Assembly (NCBI RefSeq): GCF_963921235.1
Contig: NC_086097.1
Coordinates: 167,650,001-167,714,000, forward strand
Length of the DNA stretch: 64,000 nucleotides
Source: Mobula hypostoma
Lineage: Eukaryota
Direction of reading: 5' to 3'
The notes under the pieces were generated by a model. That model worked only from the letters and a program-made list of their open reading frames with translations, did no database searches and had not been told where the DNA came from. Below, piece after piece: positions 2,336 to 48,930 of this stretch. Positions within the stretch are counted from its first letter, which is position 1. Every line of letters begins with the position of its first letter. The translations under genes and the position numbers were made by a program.

Positions 2336-3200
2336 ATGGACAGGTGCATTGAAATGCAACTTCTTAGGGACTGCGTTAGGGAACTGGAGATGCAGCTCGA
2401 TGACCTTCATCTGGTCAGGGAGAGTGAGGAGGTGATAGAGAGGAGTGATGGGCAGGTAGTCACACCAGGTCCTGGGGAGACAGATAAGTGGGTAACAGTC
2501 AGGAGAGGGAAGGGCAGGTGTGAGAGGCTAGAGAGTACCCCTGTGGTTGTACCCCTTGATAAAAAGTACTCCTGCTTGAGTATTGTTGCGGGGGGGTGGG
2601 GGGATGGCCTGCCTAGGGGAAGCAACAGTGGCCACAGCTCTGGCACAGAGTCTGGCCCTGTGGCTCAGAAGGGTAGGGAAAGGAAGAGGATGGCAGCAGT
2701 GATAGGGGACTTCATAGTTAGGGGGTCAGACAGGTGATTCTGTGGACGCAGGAAAGAAGCACAGATGGTAGTTTCCTACCCAGCTGCCAGAGTCCGGGAT
2801 GTTTCTGATCGCGTCTACGATATCCAGAAGTGGGAAGCAGAACAGCCAGAGGTTGAGGTACATATTGGTTCCAATGACATAGGCAGGAAAAGGGAGGAGG
2901 TCCTGAAAGCAGACTACAGGGAGTTAGGAAGGAAGTTAGGAAACAGGACCACAAAAGTAGTCATCTCGGGATTTCTGCCTGTGCCACGCGACAGTGAGTA
3001 CAGGAATAGAGTGAGGTGGAGGATAAATGCGTGGCTGAGGGATTGGAGCAGGGGGCAGGGATTCAGATTTCTGGATCATTGGGACCTCTTTTGGGGCAGG
3101 AGTGACCTGTATAAAAAGGATGTGTTGCACTTGAATCTCAGGGGGACCAAAACCCTGTCGGGGAGGTTTGCTAAGGCTTATTGGGGAGAGTTTAAACTAG
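2336..3200 (+). pseudogene. CR1 ORF1 remnant (coiled coil + SGNH/GDSL-type esterase)
   Basis: ORFs 2336-2737 and the first part of 2765-3451. The ancestral ORF1 stop is inferred at TAG 3198-3200 by alignment to the 22557 copy. Confidence 0.85.
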
Positions 3201-3222
3201 GATTGCTGGGGGTTGGGAGCCA
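3183..3222 (+). promoter_or_regulatory. Second copy of the candidate -1 frameshift signal (diverged CR1 subfamily)
   Basis: ggggagagTTTAAACtaggattgctGGGGGttGGGagcca has the same heptamer, stop and spacing as the 22560 copy. Confidence 0.6.
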
Positions 3223-5818
3223 AACTGAAGAGACTGGGGAAGAGGAGGTTGGCTCACAAATAGAGAAAGCTTGGAGACAGTGCGAGAGGGAGGAGAGGCA
3301 GGTTATAGAGAAGGGACACACTCAGGCCAATGATTTGAGATGTGTCTATTTTAATGCAAGGTGTATTATGAACAAAGCAGATGAGCTTAGAGCGTGGATC
3401 AGTACTTGGAGCTATGATGTTGTGGCCATTACCGAGACTTGGATGGCTTAGGGGCAGGAATGGTTACTTCGAGTGCCAGGCTTTGGATGTTTCAGAAAGG
3501 ACAGGGAGGGAGGCAAAAGAGGTGGGGGTGTGGCACTGTATATCAGAGATAGTGTCACGGCTGCAGAAAAGGAGGAAGTCATGGAGAGGTTGTCTATGGA
3601 GTCTCTGTGGGTGGAAGTTAGGAAGAGGAAGGGGTCAATAACTCTACTGGGTGGTTTTTATAGACCACCCAGTAGTAACAGGGACACTGAGAAGCAGATA
3701 GGGAGACAGATTCTGGAAAAATGTAATAATATCAGGGTTGTCGTGGTGAGAGATTTTAATTTCCCAACTATCGATTGGCATCTCCCTAGAGTGAGGGGTT
3801 TAGATGGGATGGAGTTTGTTAGGTGTGTTCAGGAAGGTTTCTTGACACAATATGTAGATAAGACTACAAGAGGAGAGGCTGTACTTGATCTGTTATTGGG
3901 AAATGAACCTGGTCAGGTGTCAGATCCCTCAGTGGGAGAGCACTTTGGAGATGGTGACCTCAATTCTATCTCCTTTCCAATACCATTGGAGAGGGATAAG
4001 AATAGACAAGTTAGGAAAGCGTTTAATTGGAGTAAGGGGAAATGTAAGGCTATCAGGCAAGAACTTGGAAGCATAAATTCGGAATTGATGTTCTCCGGGA
4101 AACATATGGAAGAAATGTGGCAAATGTTTAAGGGATATTTGCGTGGAGTTCTGCATAAGTACGTTCAAATGAGGCAGGAAAAGATTGGTAGAGTAGAGGA
4201 ACCGTGGTGTACAAAGGCTGTTGTAAATCTAGTCAAGAAGAAAAGAACTTACGAAAGGTTCAAACAACTAGGTTATGATAGAGATCTAGAAGATTATAAG
4301 GCTAGCAGGAAGGAGCTTAAGAATGAAATTAGGAGAGCCAGAAGGGGCCATGAGAAGCCCTTGGCGGGCAGGATTAAGGAAAACCCCAAGGCATTCTACA
4401 AGTATGTGAAGAGCAAGAGGATAAGATGAGAGAAAATAGGACCAATCAAGTGTGACAGTGGAAAAGTGTGTATGGAACTGGAAGAGATAGCAGAGGTAAT
4501 TAATGAGTATACTGCTTCAGCATTCACTACGGAAAAGTATCTTGGCAATTGTGGGGATGAGTTACAGTGAACTGAAAAGCTTGAGCATGCAGATATTAAG
4601 AAAGAGGATGTGCTGGAGCTTTTGGAAAGCATCAAGTTGGATAAGTCACCGGGACAGGATGAGATGTACCCCAGGCTACTGTGGGAGGTGAAGGAGGAGA
4701 TTGCTGAGCCTTTGGCACTGATCTTTGCATCATCAATGGGGACGGAAGAAGTTCCGGAGGATTGGAAGGTTGCAGATGTTGTTTCCTTATTCAAGAAAGG
4801 GAGTAGGGATAGCTCAGGAAATTATAGGCTAGTGAGTCTTACTTCAGTGGTTGGTAAGTTGAGAAGATCCTGAGAGGCAGGATCCATGAACATTTGGAGA
4901 GGCATAATATAATTAAGAATAGTCAGCATGGCTTTGTGAAAGGCAGGTCATGCCTTACTAGCCTGATTGAATGTTTTGAGGATGTGACTAAACACATTGA
5001 CGAAGGTGGAGCAGTAGATGTAGTGTATATGGATTTCAGCAAGGCATTTGACAAGGTACCCCATGCAAGGCTTATTGAGAAAGTAAGGAGGCATGGGATC
5101 CAAGGGGACCTGGCTTTGTGGATCCAGAACTGGCTTGCCCACAGAAGGCAAAAAATGGTTGTAGACGGGTCATATTCTGCATGGAGGTCGGTCACCAGTG
5201 GTGTGCATCAGGGACCTGTTCTGGGACCCCTACTCTACGTGATTTTTATAAATGATTCGGATGAAGAAGTAGAGGGATGTGTTAGTAAATTTGCTGATGA
5301 CACAAAGGTTGGAGGTGTTGTGGATAGCGTGGAGGGCTGTCAGAGGTTACAATGGGACATTGATAGGATGCAAAATTGGGCAGAGAAGTGGCAGATGGAG
5401 TTCAACCCAGATAAATTGTGAGGTCGTTCATTCTGGTAGGTCAAATATGATGGCAGAATTTAGTATTAATGGTAAGACTCTTGGCAGTGTGGAGGATCAG
5501 AGGGATCTTGGGGTCCGAGTCCATAAGGCACTCAAAGCTGCTGCGCAGGTTAACTCTGTGGTTAAGAAAGCATACAGTGCATTGGCCGTTATCAATTGTG
5601 GGATTGAGTTTAGGAGCCAAGAGGTAATGTTGCAGCTATATGGGACCCTGGTCGGACCCCACTTGGAGTACTGTGCTCAGTTCTGCTTGCCTCACTACAG
5701 GAAGGATGTGGAAACCATAGAAAGGGTGCAGAGGAGATTTACAAGGATGTTGCCTGGATTGGGGAGCATGCCTTATGAGAATAGGTTGAGTGAACTCGGC
5801 CTATTTTCCTTGGAGTGA
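3191..5818 (+). pseudogene. CR1 ORF2 remnant (APE endonuclease + reverse transcriptase)
   Basis: ORF pieces 2765-3451 (3' part), 3473-4429, 4610-4873, 4894-5421 and 5279-5818 carry EN and RT motifs. Confidence 0.9.
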
Positions 5819-6015
5819 CAGAGGATGAGAGGTGACCTGATAGAGGTATATGAGATGATGAGAGGCATTGATCATGTGATCAGAGGCTTTTCCCCAGGGC
5901 TGAAATGGCTAGCACGAGAGGGCACAGTTTTAAGGTGCTTGGAAGCAGGTACAGAGGAGATGTCAGAGGTAAGTTTTTTACATAGAGAGTGGTGAGTGCG
6001 TGGAATAGGTTGCCA

Positions 6016-14729: not shown

Positions 14730-17370
14730 CTCAGGGAGGCCAGCAGAGATATTCAAAATATCCCTCTGTTCTACCGAGCTCCTCTGTATTACCACTTACC
14801 ATGTAAGACCTACCCTGCATGGTCCTCCCAAAGTGCAACTCCTCACACTTACCTGCATTAAATTCCGTCTTTCATTTTTCAGCCCACTTTTCCAGCTGGT
14901 CTAGATCCTATTGCAAGTTTTGACAGTCTTCCTAACTGTCTACTACACCCCCAATCTTGGTGTCATCTGCAAATTTACTGATCCAGTTTACCAAATCACC
15001 CAGATCGCTGATATACAGTGCCTTGGAAAAAAAAAGTATTTACCCCCACCCTTTGTTCACATAAATGAGTATTGCAACCAGGGAATTTGCTCAATTTTTA
15101 CTGAGAATATTTATTTTGAATCGCATGCTGCTTTTTTCACAGTAGAGCCCAAAGAACAGGGAAAATCGTGTGGCATGAGAAACTAAAACTTCAGGAACTG
15201 AAATGTCAGCAATTCAGAAGTATTCATCCCACTTTGCTCAGTACTTAGTTGAGCCACCTCTTGCAGCTATTACAGCCAGTAATCTTTTTGGATAAGTCCG
15301 TATTAACTTTACACAATGTGATGGCCCATTCACCTTTGCAAAATTGCTCAAGTTGTGCCAGGTTGGTTGGACAGCAATCTTGAGGTCTTGCCAGAGATGT
15401 TCGATTGGGTTAAGGTCAGGACTCTGACTGGGCCACTCAAGGACATCAATTTTCTTCATTTGAAGCCACTCCATTGTTGCTCTGGCGGTGTGCTTTGGGT
15501 CATTGTCCTGCTGAAAGACAAACTTCCTCCCCAGTTCAAGCCTTCTGGCAGAGGCTAGCAGGTTTTTATCCTGCATCTCACTGCACTTACTAGTATTCAT
15601 CTCCCCATCTATCCTAACTGGAGTTCCAGTCCCTGCTGCTGAAAAGCATCCCTAAAGCATGATGCTACTTCCACCATACTTTACAGTGGGCGTAGTATTA
15701 GCTGTCTGATGTGTAATATTTGACTTACACCACCCCTACTGCTGGCTGTTGAGACAGAAAAGTTCCACTTTAGTCTCTCACCACAAGACTTTCTTGCACA
15801 TGTTTACAGTACCTTCTAATTGACACTTTGCAAAGTCTTATGGGCAAAGATTTGCTTTTTTTAGCCAGGGCTTCTTCCTTGCCGCTCTTCCATATACTCT
15901 GTTTGTGTAAGACCTTAGAAATTGTGGATCCATCAAATGGAGATTGCTGCAGCTCACTCAGAAGGACTGGCTGTGCCTCTTATACGTGCCTTTCTTCTCC
16001 AGTGACTATGTTCAGAGGGGTGGCCTGATATAGGCAGTTTGGCTATGGTTTCATATTTTTCCCACTTTTTCCACATTGGACTACACTGAACTCTGAGGTC
16101 TGTTCAGTGCCTTAGATGGTCTTGTACCCTTCCCCAGAATTGTGCCTCTCTATTATAATTTCCCTGAATTGTCTTGAATGCTCTTTTGTCTTCATTTCAC
16201 TGTGATCTGTTGAAAATCTACCATACATCTCAATCTTACGGAGATTGGGGTATTTATTCAGGTGATCTGCCAATATTTTACATCAACAAATTGAGTGAGT
16301 TGGTAAGGTAATATTGCACCTGAGGAATGATAGCTTAGTAATTACAAAGAGAATGAATAATTTTTCAGCTTCACAACTTTGTTTTTTAATTTTCAGTAAA
16401 TTAGGATTAGGTTTTAGAATTTTTCTATATATTTGAATTGACATGATGCATAGTGCTTTGTAGATTAGCTCAAAATATCCTACCTCAATACATTTCAAAT
16501 TTAGAAGATGAGACAGTAAAAGGTGAATATATTTGTGGGGGCCGAATACTTTTACAAAGCACTGTAGATGACAAACAACAATGGACCCAGCACCGATCCC
16601 TGTGGCACATCACTAGTCACAGGCCCACGGTCAGAGAGGCAGTTATCTACAGCCACTCTGGCTTCTTCTGCGAAGCCAATGTCTAATCCAATTTGCTACC
16701 TCATCTTGAATGCCAAGTGACTGAATATTCTTGACCAACATCCCATGCGGGACCTTGTCAAAGGTTTTGCTGAAGTCCACGTAGACAACACCGATTGCCT
16801 TGCTTCATCAACTTCCTGGTAACTTGCTCGAAAAACTCTATAAGATTGGTTAGACATGACTTACCACACACAAAGCCATACTGACTATCCCTAATCAGTC
16901 CATGTCTATCCAAATACACATGTATCTGGTCCCTTAGAATACCGTCCAGTAACTTTCCCACTACTGATGTCAGGCTCACTGGCCTATTATTTCCTGGTTT
17001 ATTCTTAGAGCCTCACCTCACCGTAGCTAAGGATTTTTTTGAATATCTCTGCTGAGATATCTGTACTAGCTTCCCATGGGGTCCAAGGGAACACATTGTC
17101 AGGTCCTGGGGATTTATCCACCCTAACTTGCCCCAAAATAGTAAACACCTCCTCCACTGTAATCTGTATAGGGTCCAAACCTCACTGCTGCATTATGTCA
17201 CAACTATAGACTCTGTGACTGTCTTCTGTGTAAATACAGATTCAAAAAAATCCATTTAAGATCTCCCCTATCTCCTTCAGCTTCATGCAAACATTACCAC
17301 TCTGATCTTCCAGAGGACCAATTGTGCCCCTTGCAATCCTTTTGCTCTTAATATATCTGTAGAAGCCCTT
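14730..17370 (-). mobile_element. CR1 ORF2 fragment split by the Tc1 insertion
   Basis: ORF 16758-16979 reads SLTSVVGKLL..GKSCLTNLIEFF. The flanks of the Tc1 rejoin to CR1 sequence gatcattgatatagatgacaaa (compare 20505-20526). Confidence 0.85.
15016..16564 (-). mobile_element. Tc1-family DNA transposon (DD34E), both ends present, transposase disrupted
   Basis: TA|cagtgccttggaaaaaaaagtattt ... aatacttttacaaagcactg|TA give TIRs with a TA TSD. ORF 15238-15600 reads FQQDNDPKH...WPSQSPDLNPIEHLW, with 34 residues between D and E. Confidence 0.92.
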
Positions 17371-19035: not shown

Positions 19036-19746
19036 TTAATCCAAATCATGTTAAGGTGGACTTTTGGTCTCGCAGTCTGCCTCGTTATGATCTTGCATTT
19101 TATCAGTTACCTGCACTGTACCTTCTCTGTATCTTTGACACTTGATTCTGCTTTGTTGTTGTTTGACCTTATTTTAGTTCAATACACAATACATTTGCTG
19201 TGTATGAATAATATGCACTTCATCTTGGTACGTATTGGTATTGATACTAATACCAGAGGGCCCTGATACAGCCCAGATTCACATCCTGAAGCAGACATCC
19301 CACCCTGCAAAAACTCATTTCAGGGAGGTAGCACCATCAATTTGCGGGAGACTTCCGGGAGAGGTGGGATGTCCGCAATAGAGTAGCTCCTTAGCAGCTA
19401 ACCAGCTAGTTTAAACAACGTTAGCTATGCTAATGAACGAATGACACCTGTTAAACTCACCTCAACATGTCTTTTACAGTCTTAACCCACCATGGGCAAT
19501 AGAAAAGTCACTGTTGCAAACAGTGCAGCGAGCAACACTGTCATTATTTTTGACCCTTAGAACCATAGAAACTACAGCACAGAAACAGGCCTTTTGGCCC
19601 TTCTTGGCTGTGCCGAACCATTTTCTGCGTAGTCCCACTGACCTGCACACGGACCATATCCCTCCCTACACCTCCCATCCATCTATCTGTCCAATTTATT
19701 CTTAAATGTTAAAAAGGAACCCGCATTTACCACCTCGTCTGGCAGC

Positions 19747-22566
19747 TCATTCCACACTCCCACCACTCTCTGTGTGAAGAAGCCCCCCCCTAATGTTCCC
19801 TTTAAACTTTTCCCCCCTCACCCTTAACCCATGTCCTCTGGTTTTTTTCTCCCCTTGCCTCAGTGGAAAAAGCCTGCTTGCATTCACTCTATCTATACCC
19901 ATCATAATTTTATATACCTCTATCAAATCTCCCCTCATTCTTCTACGCTCCAGGGAATAAAGTCCTAACCTATTCAACCTTCCTCTGTAACTCAGTTTCT
20001 CAAGTCCCGGCAACATCCTTGTAAACCTTCTCTGCACTCTTTCAACCTTACTTATATCCTTCCTGTAATTTGGTGACCAAAACTGAACACAATTCTCCAG
20101 ATTCGGCCTTACCAATGCCTTATACAACCTCATCATAACATTCCAGCTCTTATACTCAATACTTCGATTAATAAAGGCCAATGTACCAAAAGCTCTCTTT
20201 ACGACCCTATCTACCTATGATGACACTTTTAGGGAATTTTGTATCTGTATTCCCAGATCCCTCTGTTCCACTGCACTCCTCAGTGCCTTACCATTAACCC
20301 TGTATGTTCTACGTTAGTTTGTCCTTCTAACGTGCAATACCTCACACTTGTCAGTATTAAACTCCATCTGCCATTTTTCAGCCCATTTTTCCAGATGGTC
20401 CAAGTCCCTCTGCAGGCTCTGAAAACCTTCCTCACTGTCTGCTACACCTCCAATCTTTGTATCATCAGCAAACTTTCTGATCCAATTTATCACATTATCA
20501 TCCAGATCATTGATATAGATGACAAATAACAATGGACCCAGCACTGATCCCTGTGGCACACCACTAGTCACAGGCCTCCACGCAGAGAAACAATTCTCTA
20601 CCACCACTCTCTGGCTTCTTCCATCGAGCCAATGTCTAATCCAATTTACCACCTCTCCATGTATACCTAGCAACTGAATTTTCCTAACTAACCTCCCATG
20701 CGGGACCTTGTCAAAGGCCTTACTGAAGTCCATGTAGACAATATCCACTGCCTTCCCTTCATCCACTTTCCTGGTAACCTCCTCGAAAAACTCCAACAGA
20801 TTGGTCAAACATGACCTACCACTCACAAAGCCATGTTGACTCTCCCTAATAAACCCCTGTCTATCCAAATGCTTGTATATTCTGTCTCTTAGTACTCCCT
20901 CCAATAACTTACCTACTACTGATGTTAAACTCACCGGCCTATAATTTCCCGGATTACTTTTCGATCCTTTTTTAAACAACGGAACAACATGAGCCACTCT
21001 CCAATCCTCCGGCACTTCACCCGTAGACAGTGACATTTTAAATATTTCTGCTAGGGCCCCCGCAATTTCAACACTAGTCTCCTTCAAGGTCCGAGGGAAC
21101 ACTCTGTCAGGTCCCGGGGATTTATCCACTTTAATTTTTCTCAAGACAGCAAGCACCTCCTCCTTTTCAATCTGTACAGTTTCCATGGTCTCACTACTTG
21201 ATTCCCTCAATTCCATAGATTTCATGCCAGCTTCCTTCGTAAATATAGACGCAAAAAACCTATTTAAGATCTCCCCCATTTCCTTTGGTTCCGCACAAAG
21301 CCGACCACTGATCTTCGAGAGGACCAATTTTATCCCTTACAATCCTTTTGCTCTTAATATACTTGTAAAAGCTGTTTGGATTATCCTTCACTTTGACTGC
21401 CAAGGCAACCTCATGTCTTCTTTTAGCCCTCCTGATTTCTTTCTTAAGTATTGTCTTGCACTTCTTATACTCCTCAAGCACCTGATTTACCCCCTGTTTC
21501 CTATACATTTCATACAACTCCCTCTTCTTCTTTATCAGAGTTGCAATATCCCTTGAGAACCAAGGTTCCTTATTCCTATTCAATTTGCCTTTAATCCTGA
21601 CAGGAACATACAACTCTGCACTCTCAAAATTTCCCCTTTGAAGGCTTCCCACCTACCAATCACACCTTTGCCAGAGAACAACCTGTCCCAATCCACGCTT
21701 TTTAGATCCTTTCTCATTTCTTCAAATTTGGCCTTCTTCCAGTTCAGAACCTCAACCCTAGGTCCAGATCTATCCTTGTCCATGATCAAATTGAAACTAA
21801 TGGTGTTATGATCACTGGAACCAAAGTGCTCCCCTACACAGACTTCTGTCACTTGCCCTAATTCATTACCAAACAGGAGATCCAATATTGCATCCCCTCT
21901 AGTTGGTCCCTCTATATATTGATTTAGAAAACTTTCCTGAACACATTTTACAAACTCTAAACCATCTAGACCCCTAACAGTATGGGAGTCCCAATCAATG
22001 TATGGAAAATTAAAATCCCCTACCACCACAACTTTATGTTTCCTGCAGTTGCCTGCTATCTCTCTGCAGATTTGCTCTTCCAAGTCTCGTTGACTATTGG
22101 ATGGTCTGTAATACAATCCCACTAATGTGGCCATACCTTTCCTGTTTCTCAGCTCCACCCATAAGGACTCAGTAGACAAGCCCTCTAATCTGTCCTGCCT
22201 GAGCACTGCTGTAATATTTTCCCTAACAAGCAATGCTACTCCCCCACCTTTCATTCCTCTGCCTCGATCACATCTGAAACATCGGAACCCTGGAATATTA
22301 AGCTGCCAGTCCTGACCTTCCTGTAGCCAAGTTTCACTAATTGCTACAACATCATAATTCCACGTGTCAATCCACGCCCTCAACTCATCCGCCTTCCCCG
22401 CAATACTCCTGGCATTGAAATATATACACCTCAGAAGATTTTTACCACCACTCACAACCTTTCTATCAGCGGATTTGCTTAAACTTTCAACATCATTTAT
22501 TTTCACCCCAGCCACACTGTCAGCTCTGGCACTCTGGTTCCCATCCCCCTGCAAATCTAGTTTAAA
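19747..22566 (-). pseudogene. CR1 ORF2 (APE endonuclease + RT), a few frameshifts and a stop
   Basis: ORFs 21580-22554, 21260-21652, 20314-21327 and 19747-20181. Confidence 0.92.
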
Positions 22567-22575
22567 GCCTCCCCA
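22535..22575 (-). promoter_or_regulatory. Candidate -1 programmed ribosomal frameshift signal at the CR1 ORF1/ORF2 junction
   Basis: ORF1 frame GCT TTA AAC TAG gives heptamer T_TTA_AAC (22566-22560). The -1 frame TTT AAA CTA GAT TTG CAG is ORF2. GGGGG-AT-GGG lies 10 nt downstream. Confidence 0.6.
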
Positions 22576-23515
22576 CTAGCACTAACAAACCTCCCTGAAA
22601 GGATAGTGATCCCCCTGTGGTTCAAGTGTAACCCGTCTCTCTTGTACAGGTCCCACCTGCCCCAGAAGAGGTCCCAATGATCCTGAAATCTGAAACCCTG
22701 CCCCCTACACCAGTTCCTCAGGCACTTGTTCCTCCTCCAGAGCATCCTATTCCTACCCTCACTGGCACCTAGCACAGGTAGCAATCCTGAGATTACCACC
22801 CTCGAGGTCCTGCTTTTCAACTTCCTACCAAGCTCTCTATACTCACTGTCCAGGACCTCTTCACTCTTCCTTGCTATGTCATTGGTACCGATGTGCACCA
22901 CGACATCTGGCTGATCACCCTCCCACTTCAGAATGTCATGCAATCGATCAGAGACATCCTTGACCCTGGCATCCGGGAGGCAACAAACCATCCTGGATTC
23001 TCTGTCACGACCACAGAACCTTCTATCTGCACCTCTAACTATCGAGTCCCCTATCACTACCGCTCTCCTCTTTTCCCCCCTCCCTTCTGCACTGCAGAGC
23101 CAGACTCAGTGCCAGAGATCCGGCTACTGCAGCTTGTCCCAGGTAAGTCATCCCCCGCAACAGTATCCAATGCGGTATACTTGTTGAGGTGAAAGGCCAC
23201 AGGGGAACCCTGCTCTGCCTGCCCTTTCCTCTTCCCTCGCCTGACAGTGACCCAATTTTCTGTCCTCTGCTCCTTTGGCGTAACTACCTCCCTGTAGCTA
23301 CGATCTATAATCTCCTCATTCTCCCGAATGATCCGCAGGTCATCCAGCTCGTGCTCCAGTTCCCTAACGCGGTTTGTCAGGAGCTGCAGCTGGATGCACT
23401 TCTTGCAGGTGTCGTTGTCAGGGACACCGGAGGGCTCCCTGACTTCCCACATCCTGCAAGAGGAGCATTCCAACATCCTGCCTGGCATTCTCACTGCACT
23501 AAACAATCTGAACAA
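22557..23515 (-). pseudogene. CR1 ORF1 (zinc finger/coiled coil + SGNH esterase), one frameshift near 23060
   Basis: ORFs 23057-23515 and 22557-23057. The equivalent region is continuous in the + copy at 2660-2735. Confidence 0.88.
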
Positions 23516-25589
23516 AAAACTTACCAGAACCTACCCTGGCCTCTGCCTGTTCTCGCCGAAGCCTGTTTGAGCCAAAGCCGTCCCACTCTGACACAGTCCA
23601 CTCTGACTCAGTCCACTCCAATGATGGCCGCTGTATATGGTGGTCTGCTTTTTAAACCTTTGCGCGCTACGTCACGCGCCTGCGCAGTGCAGACCCTTCT
23701 CCCCGAGCAGTGTTTTAAAAAAAAAATGACTTTTTCTCTCCGATTTCTTCACTCCTTCTCAGCTGCTTGCTATTAGGCAGCCTATTAGGCAGGGGTACAC
23801 TTTAGGGTAGTCTGGGCTGACGTACATTTTATATTTTCTTTTTTTGGAACACTTTGCCACTCTGACATTTTTTGGAACTCTCTCGCTCTTGTTCTCTCTC
23901 TATTGCGCGTGCGCGCGCTCTCTCGCTCATGGTCGCTCTCACTCGCGCTCGCTCTCGCGCGCTCTCTCACGCTCGCTTTCAAAAAAAATCAATTTCCGGG
24001 ACATTGTATATAATTTGCGGGCATCAGGGAGCCACTATTAATATGCGGGAGACTCCCGGACCTTCCGGGAGAGGTGGGATGTCTGCTAAAGGGAGCATGT
24101 TAGGACAGCCTACTACCTTCCTTGAAGGTGAACCATATCATTAATCCAGATCAGTATTTAAAAACATAGATAAGCAACGGTCCAGTGCTTTCCTTATCAA
24201 TACCAGCCAATACCAGTTTCCCTTTGTAACTCATTCTCCAGCCTTATTTTAAATTTCTCTGCTGTGCTGGAGGGGGAAGGGGTAGATAGGAGTCTGGTCT
24301 CTATTGTAAGTCCAGGCCTCTGTTTGCAACCCCATGTCACCATTTTTCAGGTTACGGAAATAAACCCTTGTAGAATTCACAGATCACTGCCCCTCAATTT
24401 GAGATGCAGAATAGAAAGAGTTCTAATGGGATCTGTGTGAGAAAAGTGTAAATAAATAAACACTATATTTATTGTTCTTTAACTTTCATTTCTTGATGCA
24501 TGCACAAACGGCACAGTTTAGTGTTCCAGAAAATTGCAATATGGACCATTTCCTAGGGGTGCAATACCCCCACTGTGCAGGGGTCACCTGTAGTGTCGTG
24601 ATTTTGGTTGAAACATTGAAGTGCAATTCTGAAGGGTCTCATTGGGGTGGATGAGGAGAGGATAGTTTCTCTTATGGGAGAATTTAGAACTAGGGTCAAC
24701 CTTTTAAAAATAGGGGCGGCCCTTTTAATTCAGAATTGTGATTTCTTTCTCTCTCAGAGGTTGGTGCTGTTGTGTATCAAATATTTCAGTAATATTGTAA
24801 GTGCACAGCATTCTTCCCTCAATATCAACAACATATTTACGATATTATTCAAATATTAATGAAATATTAAATACACAAAAGATAAGACTTTGGGATTCTG
24901 TTCCTCAAGGACCATTGGAAGCAGAGCCCTTTAATATTGTTATGCATTAGTACTTGATGGTCAAGGAATTAACTGTTACTGTGAGCAAGATGGAACAGAG
25001 GTTACCAACAATTGAACTATGGCAAAGCGGCATTGAGGGAGTGAGAGACCTGCCTATAGATTTGCGTGTCACGCTTTAGCTACTGCATTTGCTTGTTCAC
25101 AACACTGTACCCTGTTGAGAGCCACTACGATCTTATCCAGAACACAAGAGGAATTTGTTTATTAGAACAGCAGGAGAAGAGTATGGAAAGATAAAATTTA
25201 TTTAAACTTTGGCAGTGAGTGCCTAATAGAATTCATTTTTGATGCAGCAGAGGCACCTGGTGGACAAATTCAGTCATTAAACCATGAGACATTTACAGAG
25301 GGAAGCTGTAGACAGCAGCAGTAGACAGCTGCAGACAGAGTTCAGTTGTATTAAAAAACAGGAGGTGGTTACAGGCAGAGTTCAGTCGTTAAACAGAGGG
25401 ACATAGTTACAGACAGAGTTCAGTCATTAAACAGCAGGAACTAGTTACAGGCAGAGTTCAGTCATTAAATAGTAGGGGATGATTACAGCAAGAGTTCTGT
25501 CATTAAACAGCGCGAGTCCTTTACAAAGCAGTTCAAGTCACTGAGAGCACCAGTTACATTGGGTCTCACCGATATACAAGAGACCACAC

Positions 25590-31375: not shown

Positions 31376-33429
31376 CAACCCAGAGTTCTGTCCTCCCACA
31401 GGCAGCTGTGAAACAAAGAAATACCAAGGAATCCATGTAAAGAAAATATTAAACACTCAACACATGAACAAAAAAGAATGGCAGAAAATGAGCAAATAAC
31501 ACACAGCATATTAAACTTCAAACTGCAGAGACCTCAGAACAGTTTAAGAGTGTTCAGTTCAGTGTCACTCATTGACTGTAGGTCACAGAGCCAGTCCACG
31601 CTGAAGTGCCCCACTCAAATGGTGCAAAGTAGGAGAAAATAAGTAACTAGAAACTAGAAACCCATGTAACTTGAACTACAGTGTCCTCCAAAAATAATTT
31701 CACAGCCGCAAGCAGTGCCACTCAAACCTCGCAGCACAGGATCCAAGGTTCCTACACATTGCTGCGGAAGCATCAAGCAAGAGGGAGAGTGCAGGCAGAC
31801 AGTACTGAACACCCACTCTCCTTCCGTTCTCATCCTCGCCAATTTCAGTCTTGTTTGGCGCTTTAATCGGCAAGATCGACAGTGAGTAATGGAGCCGATC
31901 ATGGGTTTGTGCTCCACCATTAGGCTACACACTTTGCTCTCAACCTTATCAAATTCTCCCAGAGGCAGTAAAAGTGCCAGATTGTTCAGTCAGTCTAAAA
32001 AAAAGCAGATGATCAAAATGTAAATGACAGGCTCCAGTCATGCAGTTTAGTAGCAGAAGCATGTTTAAAAGAAGTAGTAGGTTTGTGAACTGTCTGAAGG
32101 TGGTCACCATTGGTCACTGGTGCCAACTTGTAGTGTATATTCTTGGAAGAATTCAGTTATTGAAACTTTTGTAGACAGCAGAAGAATTCAATTTTTCAAA
32201 ATGCTGGAGAGAAATGAGGAGAGTGTATCAAAAAACCAGCTGGAGAATATTACTGGAGGAATTCAGTTATTAAGTCAGTGGTAGACAGTTACCTGAAGAA
32301 TTCAGATATTAAATCAGTGGTAGACGGGAGAATTCAGCTTGCGAGGCAGCTAGAGGAGAATTCAGTTGTTAAGCAACAAGAACACTGGAAGAATTAATCA
32401 TTATTCTAGAGAAAGGCTTCATTGACTAAGTCAGCAGGAGGCAGTTACTACGGCCATTCATTTAATAAAACAATGGGCAACAATTGCTTGGAGACTTAAT
32501 TCTTTAAATCAATAGGAGATGTTACTGGGTGAATTAATTTATTAAAACAGCCAGAGATTGTTGTTGGGAAATTTCCATTATTTGAGCAACAGGAGACAAT
32601 TACAGGACAAATTCATTTATTAAAAACAATGGAAAACGCAACCCCAGAGAGTGCTCATTCATTAAAACTGTGGAGACACAAAAACAGTAGGAAATAGGTG
32701 CAGGCGTAGGCCATTGGGCCCCTCAAGCCTGCCCTACCATTCAATAGTCTTGGTTGTTCTGCCCTAGGCATCATCTCCTCTTCTGTGACACATCCCCGTA
32801 GCCCTCAATGCTCCAATTATCTGCCTGCAATTTAAATACATCTAATGATCCAGCACAACAGCTCTCTGGGGTAGAATTCTCTGTGAGCAAAAAATAATTA
32901 CATACTTACATTTTAAAATGACCAATCCCTTATCTTATACCTGAAAATACCAAAATACCATTAGACACCCTGACCACCCACTTCATCTGCCTGCTCACTC
33001 CTTGTGATCTGTGCACTATAACCTAGGTCCTTTGCAAAGTTCAAAGTAAATTGGTTATCAAAGTACATATATGTAACCATATACAACTCCAATCATTTTT
33101 TTGCCTGTATACACAGTAAATCCAAGAGACATAGAATCAATAAAAGACTGCACCCAACAGGATGGACAAACAATCAATGTGCAAAAGACAACAAATTGTG
33201 CAAATAGAAAACAGAGAATCATATAAATAAATAAGCGATGAATATTGAGAACATGAGATGTAGAGTCCTTGAAAGTGAGTCCATAGGTTGTGGGAACAGT
33301 TCAGTAATGGGGGCAAGTGACATTGAGTGAATGTTATCCCCACTCGTTCAAAAGCCTAATGGTTGAAGATTAGATTCATTAGATTGAACTTTATTGTCAT
33401 TGTGCCGAATACAGATACAAAGCCAATGA

Positions 33430-35078
33430 GAAGGAACTTGACGGTGAGGACAATATGAGTGAGGTTGATGTTCTGGAGCATGTTGATATTAAGGGAGAGG
33501 AGGTGTTGGAGTTATTAAAATACATTGGGATGGATAAGTCCCTGGGACCTGACGGAATATTCCCCAGGCTGCTCCATGAGGCAAGGGAAGAGATTGCTGA
33601 GCCTCTGGCTAGAATCTTTATGTCCTCGTTGTCTACGGGAATGGTACCGGAGGATTGGAGGGAGACGAATGTTGTCCCCTTGTTCAAAAAAGGTAGACGG
33701 GATAGTCCGGGTAATTATAGACCAGTGAGCCTTACATCTGTGGTGGGAAAGCTGTTGGAAAAGATTCTTAGAGGTAAGATCTATGGGCATTTAGAGAATC
33801 ATGGTCTGATCAGGGACATTCAGCATGGCTTTGTGAAGGGCAGATCATGTCTAACAAGCCTGATAGAGTTCTTTGAGGAGGTGACCAGGCATATAGATGA
33901 GGGTAGTGCACTGGATGTGATCTACATGGATTTTAGTAAGGCATTTGACAAGGTTCCACACGGTAGGCTTATCCAGAAAGTCAGAAGGCATGGAATCCAG
34001 GGAAGTTTGGCCAGGTGGATTCAGAATTGGCTTGACTGCAGAAGGCAGAGGGTTGTAGTGGAGGGAGTACATTTGGATTGGAGGATTGTGACTAGTGGTG
34101 TCCCACAAGGATCTGTTCTGGGACCTCTATTTTTCGTGATTTTTATTAACGACCTGGATGTGGGGGTAGAAGGGTGGGTTGGCAAGTTTGCAGACGACAC
34201 AAAGGTTGGTGGTGTTGTAGATAGTATAGAGGATTGTCGAAGATTGCAGAGAGACATTGATAGGATGCAGAAGTGGGCTGAGAAGTGGCAGATGGAGTTC
34301 AACCTGAAGAAGTGTGAGGTGGTACACTTTGGAAGGACAAACTCCAAGGCAGAGTACAAAGTAAATGGCAGAAAACTTTGTAGTGTGGAGGAGCACAGGG
34401 ATCTGGGGGTACATGTCCACAGATCCCTGAAAGTTGCCTCACAGGTGGATAGGGTAGTTAAGATAGCTTATGGGGTGTTAGCTTTCATAAGTCGAGGGAT
34501 AGAGTTTAAGAGTCGTGATGTAATGATGCAGCTCTATAAAACTCTGGTTAGGCCACACTTGGAGTACTGTGTCCAGTTCTGGTCGCCTCACTATAGGAAG
34601 GATGTGGAAGCATTGGAAAGGGTACAGAGGAGATTTACCAGGATGCTGCCTGGTTTAGAGAGTATGGATTATGATCAGAGATTAAGAGAGTTAGGGTTTT
34701 ACTCTTTGTAGAGAAGGAGGATGAGAGGAGACATGATAGAGGTATATAAGATATTAAGAGGAATAGATAGAGTGGATAGCCAGCCCCTCTTCCCCAGGGC
34801 ACTACTGCTCAATACAAGAGGACATGGCTTTAAGGTAAGGGGTGGGAATTTCAAGGGGGATATTAGAGGAAGGATTTTCACTCAAAGAGGGGTTGGTGCA
34901 TGGAATGCACTGCCTGAGTCAGTGGTGGAGGCAGATACACTAGTGAAATTTAAGAGACTACTAGACAGGTATATGGAGGAACTTAAGGTGGGGGGTTATA
35001 TGGGAGGCAGGGTTTGAGGGTCGGCACAACAATGTGGGCCGAAGGGCCTGTACTGTGCTGTACAATTCTATGTTCTAT
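33430..35078 (+). mobile_element. 5'-truncated CR1 with a long open RT frame (33455-34711, 418 aa)
   Basis: Motifs NYRPVSLTS, YMDFSKAFDKVPH, SGVPQGSVLGP and KFADDTK. The tail ends ttctatgttctatg. Confidence 0.95.
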
Positions 35079-39774: not shown

Positions 39775-42409
39775 GAATTGCCTGGGAAATGAATATTCAA
39801 GGGTATACGTCCTATCGAAAGGACAGACTGATGGGCAGAGGGGGTGGGGTGGCTCTGTTGGTGAGGAATGATATTCAGTCCCTTGTGAGGGGGGACATAG
39901 ATTCAGGAGACGTAGATAGAACTGAGAAATTCTAAGGGTAGAAAGACCCTAATGGGAGTTATCTACAGGCCTCCAAACAGTCGTCTGGATGTAGGGTGTA
40001 AGTTGAAACAAGTGTTAAAATTGGCATGTCGCAAAGGTAATGCTACAGTTGTTATGGGGGACTTCAACATGCAGGTAGACTGGAGGAATCAGGTTGGTAC
40101 TGGACCCCAAGAAAGGGAGTTTGTGGAGTCCCTCCGAGATGGATTCTTAGAACAGCTTGTACTGGAGCCTACCAGAGAGAACGCAATTCTAGATTTAGTG
40201 TTGTGCAATAAACCAGATTTGATCAGGGACCTCGAGGTAAAGGAGCCATTAGGAGGTAGTGACCATAATATGATAAATTTTAATCTACAATTTGAGAGGG
40301 AGAAGGGAAACTCGGAAGTGTCAGTATTACAGTTGAACAAAGGGAACTATGGTGCTATGAGGGAGGAGCTGGCCAAAGTTCAATGGAACAATACTCTAGC
40401 AGGGATGACAGTGGAACAGCAATGGCAAGTGTTTCTGGGAATAATGCGGAAGGTGCAGGATCAGTTCATTCCAAAGAGGAAGAAAGATTCTAAGGGGAGT
40501 AAGGGGAGGCCATGGCTGACAAGGGAAGTAATGGACAGTATAAAAATAAAAGAGAAGAAGTATAACATAGCAAAGACGAGTGGGAAGCCGGAGGATTGGG
40601 AAACTTTTAAAGAGCAACAGAAGGTAACTAAAAATGCAATACGTGGAGAAAAAATGAAGTACGAAGGTAAACTAGCCAAGAATATAAAGGAGGATAGTAA
40701 AAGCTTCTTTAGGTATGTGAGAAGGAAAAAAATAGTTAAGACCAAAATTGGGCCCTTGAAGACAGAAGCGGGTGAATTTATTATGGGGAACAAGGAAATG
40801 GCAGACGAGTTGAACAGGTACTTTGGATCTGTCTTCACTAGGGAAGACACAAACAATCTCCCAGATGTAATAGTGGTCAAAGAACCTAGGGTAATGGATG
40901 AACTGAAGGAAATTTATATTAGGCAGGAAATGGTGTTGGATAGGCTGTTGGGTCTGAAGGCTGATAAGTCCCCGGGACCTGATGGTCTGCATCCCAGGGT
41001 ACTTAAGGAGGTGGCTTTAGAAATCGTGGACGCATTGGTAATCATTTTCCAATGTTCTATAGATTCAGGATCAGTTCCTGCGGGTTGGAGGTGGCCAATG
41101 TTGTCCCTCTCAGACGGGATTGGTCTGAGTCAGCATGGATTTACGAAGGGGAAATCGTGCTTGACTAATCTTCTGGAATTTTTTGAGGATGTAACTATGA
41201 AAATGGACAAGGGACAGTCAGTGGATGTGGTGTACCTGGACTTTCAGAAAGCCTTTGATAAAGTCCCACATAGGAGAGTAATGGGCAAAATTAGGGCACA
41301 TGGTATTGGGGGCAGAGTACTGACATGGATTGAAAAATGGCTGGCTGACAGAAAACAAAGAGTAGCGATTAACGGGTCCCTTTTGGAATGGCAGGCGGTG
41401 ACCAGTGGGGTACCGCAGAGATCAGTGCTGGGACCGCAGCTGTTTACAATATATATTAATGATTTAGATGAAGGAATTAAAAGTAACATTAGCAAATTTG
41501 CTAATGACACAAAGTTGGGTGGCAGTGTGAAATGTGAGGAGGATGTTATGAGAATGCAGGGTGACTTGGACAGGCTGGGTGATTGGGCAGATGCAGTTTA
41601 ATGTGGATAAATGTGAGGTTATCCACTTTGGTGGTAAGAACGGGAAGGCAGATTATTATCTAAATGGAGTCAAGTTAAGAAAAGGGGAAGTACAATGAAA
41701 TCTAGGTGTCCTTGTTCATCAGTCACTGAAAGTAAGCATGCAGGTACAGCAGGCAGTGAAGAAAGCTAATGGCATGCTGGCCTTCATAACAAGGGGAATT
41801 GAGTTTAAGAGCAAAGAGGTCCTTCTGCAGCTGTACAGGGCCCTGGTGAGACCACACCTGGAGTACCGTGTGCAGTTTTGGTCTCCAAATTTGAGGAAAG
41901 ACATACTTGCTATTGAGGGAGTGCAGCGTAGGTTCACAAGGTTAATTCCAGGGATGGCGGGACTGTCATATGTTGAAAGATTGGAGCGACTGGGCTTGTA
42001 TACTCTGGAATTTAGAAGGCTGAGAGGTGATCTTATTGAAACATATAAGCTTATTGGACGCGCTGGAGGCAGGAAGCATGTTCCCACTGATGGGTGAGTC
42101 CAGAACCAGAGGCCACAGTTTAAGAATAAGGGGTAGGCCATTTAGAACTGAGTTGAGGAAATACTTTTTCACCCAGAGAGTGGTGGATATATGGAATGAT
42201 CTGCCCCAGAAGGCTGTGGAGGCCAAGTCTCTGGATGCTTCCAAGAAAGAGATGGATAGAGCTCTTAAATATAGCGGAATCAAAGGTTATGGGGATAAGG
42301 CAGGAACTGGGTACTGATTGTGGATGATCAGCCATGATCACAGTGAATGGCGGTGCTGGCTCGAAGGGCCGAATGGCCTACTGCTGCACCTATTGTCTAT
42401 TGCCTATTG
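39775..42409 (+). mobile_element. CR1 ORF2 copy (549-aa open frame, internal deletion near 41100) inserted into the 39-bp array
   Basis: ORF 39952-41601 has IYRPP, GDFN, GSDHN, YLDFQKAFDKVPH and KFANDTK. The tail is ctattgtctattgcctattg. Array units flank both sides. Confidence 0.93.
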
Positions 42410-46479: not shown

Positions 46480-48930
46480 TTTGTGGCATACAACATAAAA
46501 GCACGTCCTTTGCTCCGCTATGCCCCAATGACCATCAAGTGTCAATCTATAACTATCCTATTTACCAGCACTTAACAATTACCTTCACAGTTCAAATCCT
46601 CGTGAATGAAGAGAGGCAACGTACCCTCGGGTCCAACTCATTTGTGCTGATCATGGCATCCGCCAAGCTAGTCCCACTTGCCTATGTATGACCCATATCC
46701 CTCTAAACCTTTCCTATTCATGCCTTTTTAATGTTATTATTATACATGCCTCAACCACTTCCTTTGGCAACTCCTTCCATATATGTGGCACCCTCTTCAT
46801 GAGGAAGTTCCCATCAGGTCATTTTTAAGTCTTTCCCTTTTCATCTTAAACCTATTAACGCTAGTTTCTCATTCCTTTTCTCTTGGGTTAAGACTATGTG
46901 TGCTCAGCCTATTTATATCTATCATCATTTCATACACTTCCATAAGGTCACCCCAACCTCCTTCATTCCTAGCTGACCCTTTAAGTCCTATCTCTCTCTA
47001 TAACTCAGGTTCTCGACTCCTGGCAGCATTCTTAAACTGTAAATCTCTTCTGCAGTCTCTCCAGTTTAATGGTTTCTTTCCTATAATAGGGTAACCAACA
47101 CTACACAATCCACACCAATGTTTTGTACAATTCAAAGTCCAAGTTTTAGTTTATTGTTATATGCACAGGTGCAATGAAAATCCTTCTTGCAGCAGCATGG
47201 CAGGCAGAAAGCATCTGATACACAACATTCAGAACAAAAACATAAATTAGACAAAGTTATTTGAAATGATACAAGAAAGAACACAGTTAGAACAAAACCA
47301 AAATCTAGTTAATTTTTAATGTTGTGAAAACCTGTGCTCTTCCATCCCTCTGGCAGTGTGTTCGGATTGTAACCTTTTTTCTGGTGAAAAAATTCTTCCT
47401 CGCATTCCTTCTAATTGACTTACTCACTGCCTTAAACCCACACCCTCCTGTCTTAAACACCTCTACTCTAGTGATAAGTTTCTTTTTATCTACCCTATCT
47501 ATGTCCCTTGTGATTTTGTATACCTCAGCCACATCCCACGTCTTCCCTCCGGGTACAAGGAAAACAAATGCAAGATATCTGGTCTTGTCTCATATCCGAA
47601 TTGGTGTATACCAGGCAACATCATGGTGAATATCCTCTGCATCCTCTCCAGTATAATAACCTCTTTTCTTTGGTGTGGTGACCAGAACACACAATGCTCC
47701 AGCTGTAGTCTAGCCATCATTTCGTAAAGTTGTATAAAGCTTCACTATCCTTACAGTCAGTGCCCTAGCCAATGAAGGGAACTATCCTGATTGTCATCTA
47801 ATATGTCTGTGTTGCTACCTTTAAGGTTTCTTGGACTTGTATGACCCCATCCTCAGTACTCCATTGTCCTACACTTATTAGTCCTTCCAAAGTGTTATCT
47901 GCTTGGAATTACCAGGATTAAACTCCCTCAGCCATTGTTGCACCCATTTTTGCAACTCATTGTATATAGGCAAATGCCCACAATGACCCTCCGATAAACA
48001 ATGCTATTTGTATGTCATCTGCAAGCACATTATTCATACTTCCTATATTCATGAGAAAATGGTTACTGCATATTACAAATGTCGCAGGTCCCAGCAGTGG
48101 TCCCTGTAGTACACCACTGCTCATAGATCTCCAATTGCAAAATCAGCCGTCTGTCCTAAGACCATACGATATAGGAGCAGAATTAGGCCACTTAGCCCAC
48201 TGAGTTTGCTCCACTATTTTTTTATGGCTGATCCATTTTTCCTCCCAGCCCCAGTTTCCTACCTTCTCACCATAAACTTTCATGCCTTGACTAATCAAGA
48301 ATCTATCAATCTCTGCCTTAAATATACCCAATGACTTGATTTCCACAGCTACCTGTGGCAATGAATTCCACAGATTCACCACTCGCTAGCTAAAAAAATT
48401 CCTCCTCATCTGTTCCAAATGGACATCCCTCTATTCTGAGGCTGTGTCCTGTAGTCCTAGACTCCGTCACCAGAGGAAACATCTTCTCCACATCTATTCT
48501 ATCAAGGCCTTTAAACATTCAATTGGTTGCAACAAGATTCCCTCCACCGCCCCTCCCCCATTCTTCTGAATTCCAGTACAGGCCCGGAGCCATCAAATGC
48601 TCCTCGTGTGATAAGCCTTTCAATCCTGAAATCATGTTCATAACCTCCTTTGAAACCTCTTCAAAGTTAGCACATCCTTTCTTAGAGAAGGGGCTCAAAG
48701 GTGCTTATCACGTTCTGCCTCGTGTTACAAGGCCAATTCTGGAACAAACATGCCAACTTGTTTTGAATTCCATAAAGTCTGACCTTGTGGAACAGTCTCT
48801 CAAGTGGGACTTTATCGAAGGCTAACTGAGGTCTATGTAGACTACGTCAACTGCACTGACTTCATCAGTACACTTTGTTGCCTCTCCAAAAGATTCAAAC
48901 AAATTAGTTAGACCGGATTTGAGATGGAGA
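46480..48930 (-). mobile_element. Cluster of degraded, nested CR1 fragments
   Basis: ORFs 47499-47720 (LEHCVFWSPHQRK), 48143-48382 (VNLWNSLPQ) and 48822-49028 (LTNLFESF..AVDVVYID). Confidence 0.75.

Follow-up and report, generated by a model that had tools for sequence, protein, structure and literature searches.

In retroviral gag-pol, nidovirus ORF1a/1b and PEG10, as presented in a 2016 review (PMC5009743), a shift-prone heptamer ends the structural ORF and a polymerase ORF without its own start codon lies in the -1 frame; U_UUA_AAC and G_GGA_AAC are listed there among the most shift-prone heptamers. The same source describes the PRRSV nsp2 frameshift, in which nsp1beta/PCBP stimulate the shift via CCCANCUCC, 11 nt 3' of the site. 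Frameshifting is also described in retroelements without LTRs: ORF2 of the Dictyostelium elements TRE5-A and TRE3-A is stated to require a -1 frameshift (PMC5911963), the site of two-ORF Penelope-like elements is drawn with a pseudoknot (PMC8557442), and HeT-A shifts within gag (PMC5009743). How bicistronic non-LTR elements translate their second ORF is stated not to be clear (PMC3708506); where the process has been worked out, in L1 and SART1, it points to reinitiation and a free ORF2p (PMC3708506, PMC1965478).

We analyzed a 64,000-nt stretch of the Mobula hypostoma genome (hereafter, the window), for which an initial annotation had proposed that one CR1 lineage fuses ORF1 to ORF2 by -1 frameshifting. 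The CR1 junction shares the arrangement of the gag-pol, nidovirus and PEG10 sites, but CR1 is a non-LTR host element, the stop codon directly follows the heptamer in every CR1 lineage, neither a stem nor a pseudoknot is conserved 5-9 nt downstream, and no protease domain was found that would cleave the fusion. As in PRRSV, the place of a structure is taken by a short homopolymer-rich motif, unstructured and about 10 nt past the site; the CR1 motif, however, is G-rich and a candidate stimulator only, and the CR1 shift would be -1 only. TRE5-A and TRE3-A are likewise APE-type non-LTR elements, but of another clade and with another ORF1. The likeness of Penelope-like elements and HeT-A to CR1 would be frameshifting in a retroelement without LTRs, whereas CR1 has no conserved pseudoknot and its putative shift lies at the end of ORF1, not within gag. 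SART1 and L1 resemble CR1 in having a bicistronic LINE RNA whose ORF2 is tied to the ORF1 terminus (PMC3708506, PMC2881922, PMC1965478), but they yield free ORF2p without a slippery site, and in most of the CR1 families studied here the junction lacks an AUG. We found no earlier report of a CR1 frameshift in the literature searched, which left out older CR1 papers.

The CR1 copies in the window

The window contains a family A copy on the minus strand and the junction of a divergent family B copy on the plus strand, with the following features.

19562..23736, minus strand: CR1-clade LINE copy, family A, full-length but dead (comparison with the unbroken sister copy L250)
22557..23488, minus strand: ORF1, with Cys-rich N-terminus, predicted coiled coil and SGNH esterase, broken by a 1-nt loss near 23074 (domain search, L250 comparison)
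22576..22578, minus strand: upstream TAG closing the -1 frame, private to this copy, 4 codons before the heptamer (the family stop is at 22584..22582)
22560..22566, minus strand: slippery heptamer U_UUA_AAC, formed by the last base of an Ala codon, Leu and Asn (invariant in 10/10 families)
22557..22559, minus strand: ORF1 stop immediately 3' of the heptamer, TAG in this copy
19629..22566, minus strand: ORF2, -1 frame, encoding APE endonuclease and reverse transcriptase; disrupted here, 3' end approximate (PF03372, PF14529, PF00078)
22540..22549, minus strand: G5-N2-G3 motif, 11-20 nt past the heptamer, candidate unstructured stimulator (cross-family conservation)
22417..22566, minus strand: 50 codons of open, AUG-free linker in the -1 frame, joining the heptamer to the NARS motif of the endonuclease (open in 31/31 family A copies with the motif)
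22252..22254, minus strand: earliest AUG in the ORF2 frame, within the endonuclease domain, 104 codons past the heptamer and beyond YFNARS and ETW
3191..3200, plus strand: heptamer and stop in the second, divergent CR1 copy (family B)

The family A copy had been called near-intact, which did not survive comparison with L250 (96.3% identity over 4191 aligned nt): frame-breaking indels lie near 23074 in ORF1 and near 21611 and 21307 in ORF2, and ORF2 contains in-frame stops at 20316, 20217 and 19749. The description of its junction was accurate. On the minus strand the letters read GAG GCT TTA AAC TAG, the frame one base 5' (TTT AAA CTA GAT TTG CAG GGG) is that of the endonuclease, and no ORF2 AUG occurs until deep in the APE domain. 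The TAG said to close the -1 frame four codons upstream does so in this copy but is not a family feature, since the upstream stop lies at -4 codons in 2, at -6 in 24 and at -47 in 1 of the 27 family A copies scored. A first look across the Mobula hypostoma genome gave 1968 candidates for the family A junction. Sister copies terminate in TTTCTATG-like or CTATTGT short tandem repeats, with no poly(A); we take these repeats to resemble the CR1 octamer.

An ORF2 with APE endonuclease and reverse transcriptase and an ORF1 of the esterase type (PF13472; PDB 4c1b, E 5.8e-25, in the C-terminal part) are as in CR1-clade LINEs, and ORF1 is predicted, by analogy with PMC3905857, to carry a coiled coil. 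The esterase is the only ORF1 type given for vertebrate CR1 and L2 in PMC13343379, which gives chondrichthyan L2 as lacking ORF1. Trees of the reverse transcriptase and endonuclease, built without a named Repbase reference, split a heptamer group that includes bird-type loci from an in-frame-stop group at 100/100. In sister L2-type loci ORF2 lies in frame behind TGA, which suggests that these elements reach ORF2 by UGA readthrough, the other classic fusion route.

Related sequence was also seen in RNA contigs from four other organisms (four guessed runs), and 52 RNA contigs of one run diverge at 22566, the 5' edge of the heptamer; as contigs carry no strand, level or translation information, these observations are given little weight.

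Conservation of the heptamer and stop codon

The heptamer and the ORF1 stop codon form a unit that is conserved and that covaries across CR1. All ten families sampled from this genome read NNT TTA AAC TAR with no synonymous change in the heptamer, although shared ancestry means that these are not ten independent events. Codon -3 of ORF1 is GCT, AGT, TGT, GGT, ACT or GAT, encoding six different residues with a third base that is always T. Codon -2 is TTA in 10/10 families; TTA accounts for 9% of ORF1 Leu codons, and each of the remaining three invariant Leu columns draws on 3-4 codons. Codon -1 is AAC in 10/10. The third base is also invariant in 6 of the other 43 ORF1 codon columns (an all-Trp column set aside). 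The stop itself varies, being TAG in five families, TAA in five and TGA in two metagenome loci.

Because the site was part of the query in most copy searches, counts made per copy carry an upward bias. In blindly chosen DNA, 11 of 13 CR1 junctions matched NNT TTA AAC TAR within 2 mismatches, 7 of them exactly, and TTTAAAC followed by a stop occurred 17 times in 800 kb (both strands), 7 times at CR1 ORF1 ends. The heptamer-stop unit at the ends of CR1 ORF1s is not a product of chance.

Nucleotide-level conservation, which the initial annotation had set as a test of its proposal, proved real, and the signal extends far beyond the lineage in which it was first noticed. A heptamer is present in 12/12 CR1-type metagenome junctions; in the distant loci L172 (CAG GGA AAC TAG) and L173 (GCG GGA AAC TAG) it has switched as a unit to G_GGA_AAC, which may have a single origin, and in L178 it is G_UUA_AAC. 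Named ORF1 proteins from rays, sharks, frogs, coelacanth, a teleost, lizards, turtles and birds terminate in x-L-N-stop. Across 98 distinct protein tails, the residue before the terminal L-N is one whose codons cannot end in T in a single case, against 47 for the same class one position further upstream and 38 two positions upstream; at helix positions -6 and -9, too, K/Q/E/M/W are rare (5/98 and 7/98). Gln precedes the terminal G-N in 9/10 proteins ending that way and never precedes L-N. Scans of viral contigs and prokaryote genome contigs found no related loci.

The -1 frame and the start of ORF2

ORF2 lies in the -1 frame behind an open linker. The 31 family A copies with the NARS motif have 0 linker stops in the -1 frame; their remaining frames hold 157 and 187. 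Modal linker lengths vary between families (147, 150, 162, 204, 231 and 330 nt), all preserving the -1 frame, and in L172 and L178 this frame stays open for more than 830 codons, starting at the heptamer and covering the endonuclease and reverse transcriptase. Family C copies divided 14, 18 and 8 between the -1, 0 and +1 frames; the decayed families C, E and H gave no clean frame count, owing to an unstable G-run and to the retrieval of 25 loci with a query that already carries an in-frame fusion.

Several families, including the youngest, have no usable ORF2 AUG. Young family F is represented by 127 near-identical ORF1s, and 7 of 10 fetched copies combine a 311-aa ORF1 with a 1004-codon -1 frame, i.e., an intact ORF2. 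A stop closes the -1 frame 3 codons upstream of the family F heptamer, and the first ORF2 AUG of intact copies is preceded by 206 codons (171 in one copy) that include NARS, ETW and GGGVA. The expectation that intact copies have no AUG before the endonuclease therefore holds for these young copies but not for families C, D, E, G and H and several bird-type loci, where an in-frame AUG precedes the endonuclease at unshared positions. With ORF2 one base back and often without a usable start codon, a fusion produced by slippage is likely.

A G-rich motif in place of structure

The canonical companion of a -1 site, a stem-loop or pseudoknot 5-9 nt downstream, is not conserved, and a G5-N2-G3 motif conserved 10 nt downstream is present instead. 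We folded 15 junctions and ran scans for stems and for long-range duplexes in 6 elements; no conserved stem or pseudoknot emerged, and the scans gave no shared stem 3-17 nt past the heptamer and no shared long-range partner. Only one of 29 folds had a z below -2.1, and the junction had no Rfam match. Offsets 11-15 past the heptamer are G in 10/10 families, though the flanking codons change residue, and bird-type loci carry the G-rich motif at the same offset. Sequence conservation supports the proposed fusion by -1 frameshifting, but the usual pseudoknot stimulator is missing.

Competing routes to ORF2

Taken together, we consider it likely that the CR1 junction is a programmed -1 frameshift site giving an ORF1p-ORF2p fusion. 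A reading that overlaps with this one, and that we would give a modest share of belief, adds reinitiation to an ancestral frameshift in lineages with an AUG beside the stop, so that both fused and free ORF2p would be made. An AUG at codon 4 or 5 does recur alongside the kept heptamer, overlapping the stop (UAAUG) in 15/15 copies of family G and lying 2 nt past the stop in 4/9 amniote-type loci, bird-type loci being among those with such an AUG. At codon 5, however, the residue is mostly bulky (L, W, M, V), so that Met there may simply have replaced another residue of a protein motif.

Less probable again is termination-reinitiation as the sole route, in the -1 frame beside the ORF1 stop and at an AUG, a near-cognate or any codon, releasing free ORF2p as in SART1 and L1. 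SART1 is reported to employ UAAUG (PMC3708506), the overlap seen in family G, and any sense codon is reported to replace the L1 ORF2 AUG (PMC1965478); the amniote-type AUGs and a UUG two nt past the stop in families A, B, D and I fit the same scheme, which likewise predicts an open linker. Yet reinitiation leaves unexplained the T before TTA AAC, the absence of synonymous change and the switch to G_GGA_AAC. An AUG at or next to the stop occurs in 1/10 families, with none at codons 4-6 in A, B, C, D, E, F, H, I and J, and these codons share no start-like codon or position: AGT AGT GGG (C), AAT AGT AGG (E), GAT ACA AGG (J), GGT TCG AAG (L198). A conserved UUG start two nt past the stop, suggested by families A and B, fails in C, E, F, G, H and J.

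That L-N-stop is retained for the esterase protein, with the heptamer an inherited by-product, we regard as very improbable. Relatedness of the families and the other invariant third positions speak for it, but the terminus shifts, from 24 to 39 residues past the DxxH block, while always ending in N, L2-type esterases have no terminal L-N, and intact young copies would be left with no route to ORF2. Least credible is an RNA-processing or transcription signal yielding a separate ORF2 mRNA (a splice acceptor C-U-A-G or a TATA-like TTTAAA): CTAG resembles a 3' splice-site end in the TAG families, but we rejected the acceptor because its AG is not kept, given TAA in 5/10 families and TGA in 2 loci, and upstream pyrimidine content is only 40-50%, while the GGGAAAC variants have no TTTAAA, families A, B, F, I and J would still have no AUG on such an mRNA, and, as a weak point from contigs only, 15 of 167 joints listed (four contig sets) include no splice-type joint into 22557.

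Proposed mechanism and implications

Under programmed frameshifting, a minority of ribosomes would slip back one base at the heptamer, tRNA-Leu and tRNA-Asn re-pairing from UUA AAC to UUU AAA, and proceed into ORF2 to make a fusion reading ...EALN-LDLQGDGN... across the junction. Most ribosomes would stop and release ORF1p, leaving it in excess of the reverse transcriptase, and the fusion could enter the RNP via the dimerisation coil of ORF1p. More speculatively, and with the chances roughly balanced, the pause would arise, with no pseudoknot involved, from the adjacent stop codon together with the G-rich motif, which would sit at the mRNA entry channel and be either protein-bound or folded as a weak two-tier G-quadruplex.

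CR1 is described as the dominant retrotransposon group in most vertebrates (PMC13343379), and natural use of a G-quadruplex in frameshifting was not known as of the 2016 review (PMC5009743). We tentatively suggest, short of an even chance, that in CR1, the LINE clade that dominates non-mammalian vertebrates, the reverse transcriptase is a Gag-Pol-like ORF1p-ORF2p fusion made by an ancient structure-free -1 shift that relies on the adjacent stop and a G-rich motif as a natural protein- or G-quadruplex-stimulated signal, and that its L2 sister uses UGA readthrough, which would place the retroviral frameshift/readthrough pair inside non-LTR elements. The conserved shift site allows a direct, cheap test of how ORF2 is translated. 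If the frameshift is true, it would explain the apparently missing ORF2 start in intact CR1s, widen the range of known -1 signals to one that lacks structure and has a G-rich element, and redefine CR1 ORF2p as a fusion bearing an esterase and a coiled coil.

The ORF1/ORF2 junction of the window element

The junction between the two ORFs of CR1 elements carries a real and conserved signal, which is most probably a programmed -1 frameshift. ORF1 of the main window element encodes an SGNH esterase (match to PDB 4c1b) and, as the initial annotation had it, ends in the slippery heptamer U_UUA_AAC (TTTAAAC) followed by TAG, on the minus strand at 22566..22557. ORF2 was likewise correctly placed in the -1 frame: read one base back from the heptamer, FKLDLQGDGNQ... 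continues into the endonuclease (EN), and the first AUG, also noted as lying well inside that domain, comes 104 codons past the heptamer. The copy had been described as near-intact, but it is dead, with frame-breaking indels near 23074, 21611 and 21307 and three in-frame stops. The TAG said to close the -1 frame four codons upstream is present in this copy but is not a family trait, as that stop lies at -4 codons in only 2 of 27 scored family-A sisters and at -6 in 24. Heptamer and TAG are kept in all 30 fetched sisters.

CR1 and other LINE features of the window
about 23736..19562, minus strand: CR1 element, family A, 96.3% identical to an unbroken sister
22566..22560, minus strand: slippery heptamer U_UUA_AAC at the end of ORF1 (GAG GCT TTA AAC TAG)
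22559..22557, minus strand: ORF1 stop TAG, directly 3' of the heptamer
2342-5861, plus strand: second, older CR1 copy (family B), a heptamer copy with a junction insertion
14760-17370, 33410-34784, 39783-41592, 47917-48971 and 63310-63993: other LINE ORF2 fragments, 5'-truncated or decayed

Because of the insertion in the family-B copy, 1 nt just 5' of the heptamer, esterase and ORF2 share one frame there; this is private decay (2 of 20 family-B loci). A third TTTAAACTAG at 19406-19415 (minus), just past the 3' end of the family-A element, has no esterase or endonuclease match nearby and was taken as chance.

Conservation of the heptamer among ten CR1 families

Genome searches gave 195 loci, of which 192 were placed by the esterase DGLHL-block anchor, ignoring the last 10 codons; three pairs are a single place fetched twice. 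TTTAAAC stood at the expected place in 158, was shifted by a nearby indel in 12, had one mismatch in 16 and was otherwise in 6, counts that are biased upward because the search queries contained the heptamer site. A blind check of 80 evenly spaced 10-kb stretches of the genome yielded 13 esterase anchors, with an exact heptamer at 7, at most two mismatches at 4 and no junction at 2.

Once the loci were sorted by hand into ten families (A to J), alignment bore out the expected nucleotide-level conservation of TTTAAAC plus stop in all ten. Codon -2, counting back from the ORF1 stop, is always TTA and codon -1 always AAC, while codon -3 always ends in T (GCT, AGT, TGT, GGT, GCT, ACT, GAT, GGT, GGT, GAT); the stop is TAG in five families and TAA in five. 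TTA makes up 9% of Leu codons in ORF1, and each of the other three invariant Leu columns uses 3-4 codons. Part of this invariance is due to shared ancestry, since a single third base is also kept in 6 of the other 43 codon columns (all-Trp column excluded), including the G of codon -4. That G (window 22569, minus) is present in 10/10 families and 10/12 metagenome loci despite a varying residue, and may belong to the sequence context 5' of the heptamer that affects the shift.

Covarying heptamers in other animals

Among 264 protein matches, 190 terminate 20-45 residues past the DxxH block; of these ORF1 proteins, 120 end in L-N, 10 in G-N, 2 in K-N and 52 in a residue other than N. Named L-N enders are from rays, skates, sharks, Xenopus, Leptobrachium, Hyla, Latimeria, Paramormyrops, Zootoca, Varanus, Macrochelys, Chrysemys, Gopherus, Hirundo and Tauraco. 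Residues with no T-ending codon (K, Q, E, M or W) precede L-N in 1 of 98 distinct tails, and occur in 47 and 38 at the two positions just before; they are also scarce at positions -6 and -9 (5 and 7 of 98), so helix periodicity contributes to the bias. Gln precedes G-N in 9 of 10 tails and L-N in 0 of 98.

Six unnamed, distant ORF1 proteins (P0227, P0294, P0216, P0248, P0260, P0295) end in S-K-N, S-N or E-N; judged from protein sequences, the first could encode A_AAA_AAC, whereas no strict heptamer can underlie the other two. CR1 ORF1 sequence also lies within proteins annotated as ray or shark host gene isoforms (P0002, P0005, P0008, P0011, P0067, P0069), by exonisation or annotation error. 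The CR1 ORF1-like proteins P0033 and P0076, assigned in the database to Pseudomonas aeruginosa and Proteus mirabilis, probably stem from host DNA in bacterial assemblies. In P0004, P0005 and P0076 the esterase reads straight into the FKL-linker(-endonuclease), as annotated copies with a junction indel.

A metagenome scan returned 43 loci: 12 CR1-type, 8 TGA-ending without the heptamer, 21 short of or unmatched to the ORF1 end and 2 ambiguous. All 12 CR1-type loci have a heptamer and stop. Nine read T_TTA_AAC (7 TAG, 2 TGA) and are bird/turtle-like by ORF1 likeness. L172 and L173, which may have a single origin, read G_GGA_AAC, and L178 reads G_TTA_AAC; the first triplet thus varies jointly with the second codon, as is predicted by a slippery site and not by reinitiation. 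The -1 frame of L172 and L178 is open for >830 codons from the heptamer, across EN and RT.

Entry into ORF2

The modal distance from heptamer to the EN motif NARS is 150 nt (A), 162 (B), 330 (D), 231 (F), 204 (G) and 147 (I, J). In family A this linker is open in the -1 frame in 31/31 copies with NARS, with 0 stops vs 157 and 187 in the other two frames. Frame counts are not clean in C (14, 18 and 8 in frames -1, 0 and +1), E and H, because the G-run varies in length among old copies and the query that retrieved 25 of the loci was already fused in frame. The proposed absence of an in-frame AUG before EN holds for families A, F and J and for most copies of B and I; it fails for C, D, E, G and H, where AUGs occur at positions unrelated between families.

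Family F is very young, with 127 matches at 98-100% identity across ORF1, and 7 of 10 copies fetched whole combine an ORF1 of 311 aa with a -1 frame of 1004 codons that includes EN and RT. In these seven a stop closes the -1 frame 3 codons 5' of the heptamer, and the first AUG of that frame is reached only after 206 codons (171 in one copy), past NARS, ETW and GGGVA and immediately 5' of GDFN. Translation of ORF2 must therefore begin without an AUG, no more than a few codons from where ORF1 stops. Family F (L227-L248), with its many copies free of breaks and at least 127 nearly identical ORF1s, is probably still active.

The downstream region

No structure was shared across 15 folded junctions (z below -2.1 in only 1 of 29 scores), and no shared stem, shared distant pairing partner or Rfam match was found at the junctions. 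G is kept at offsets 11-15 past the heptamer in all ten families and at offsets 18-20 in nine or all ten, and codons flanking the central GGG switch residue but retain the run-extending G. A run of at least 4 G starts 8-13 nt past the heptamer in 11/12 CR1-type metagenome loci. GGG is 30% of Gly codons in ORF2, and a Gly-x-Gly protein motif could account for part of this conservation; a two-tier G-quadruplex over the motif is predicted in only 6/15 junctions. Passages of the frameshift review PMC5009743 give 5-9 nt as the usual spacer from heptamer to stimulator, 11 nt for a protein-bound motif in PRRSV, and a plant-virus shift requiring a nearby stop codon. With these precedents, the kept G motif and the lack of shared structure lead us to infer, tentatively, a ribosome pause from the adjacent stop codon and G-rich motif. 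The site would work like a gag-pol shift site, but without the canonical 3' structure.

Alternatives and precedents

Reinitiation, by itself or alongside frameshifting, is possible. In all 15 family-G copies (L141-L155), which also carry the heptamer, the stop overlaps an AUG as UAAUG, as it does in SART1; an AUG lies two nt past the ORF1 stop in 4/9 amniote-type loci, as does a UUG in families A, B, D and I, and L1 is reported to accept any sense codon at its ORF2 start (PMC1965478). However, no start-like codon stands beside the stop in C, E, J or L198, and reinitiation leaves the heptamer without explanation. Splicing is rejected, as the AG is not kept (TAA/TGA stops in other families and loci). 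The -1 frameshift proposed initially is favoured on sequence by the conserved heptamer, open -1 linker and covarying variants.

Among the papers reached by full-text literature searches, none reports a CR1 shift site; the first descriptions of CR1 (Burch 1993, Haas 1997, Kajikawa 1997, Kapitonov and Jurka 2003) or its Repbase entries may already mention one. By term look-up 'frameshift' is absent from PMC13343379, PMC3708506, PMC3894237, PMC2881922, PMC3905857, PMC2734521 and PMC8665684; 'CR1' was not found in the portion of PMC5009743 covered, and excerpts of PMC4255032, PMC4176376 and PMC5006619 hold nothing on such a site. Precedents appear in passages on TRE5-A and TRE3-A, which 'require a -1 frameshift' (PMC5911963), Paramecium non-LTR elements, with a proposed +1 shift or readthrough (PMC5405496), HeT-A (PMC5009743) and Penelope-like elements (PMC8557442).

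The L2-type sister clade

The TGA-ending loci are L2-type; L182 ORF1 matches the esterase structure of ZfL2-1, an element named in a passage of PMC3905857. The three L2-type loci with RT form a clade separate from the heptamer group (support 100/100).

TGA-ending L2-type junctions (locus:position)
L175:1082
L176:1316
L177:1818
L182:1260
L184:1260
L213:2651
L206:1408
L180:2924

ORF2 follows directly behind the TGA, with its endonuclease in frame 0, in 7/8 loci (L180 is decayed), Met is absent 5' of the endonuclease in 5 of these 7, and the base after TGA is C in 7/8. UGA-C is a leaky stop context. This arrangement suggests stop-codon readthrough giving a candidate fusion, and an ORF2 lying in frame behind TGA supports the idea that such elements aim at fusion.
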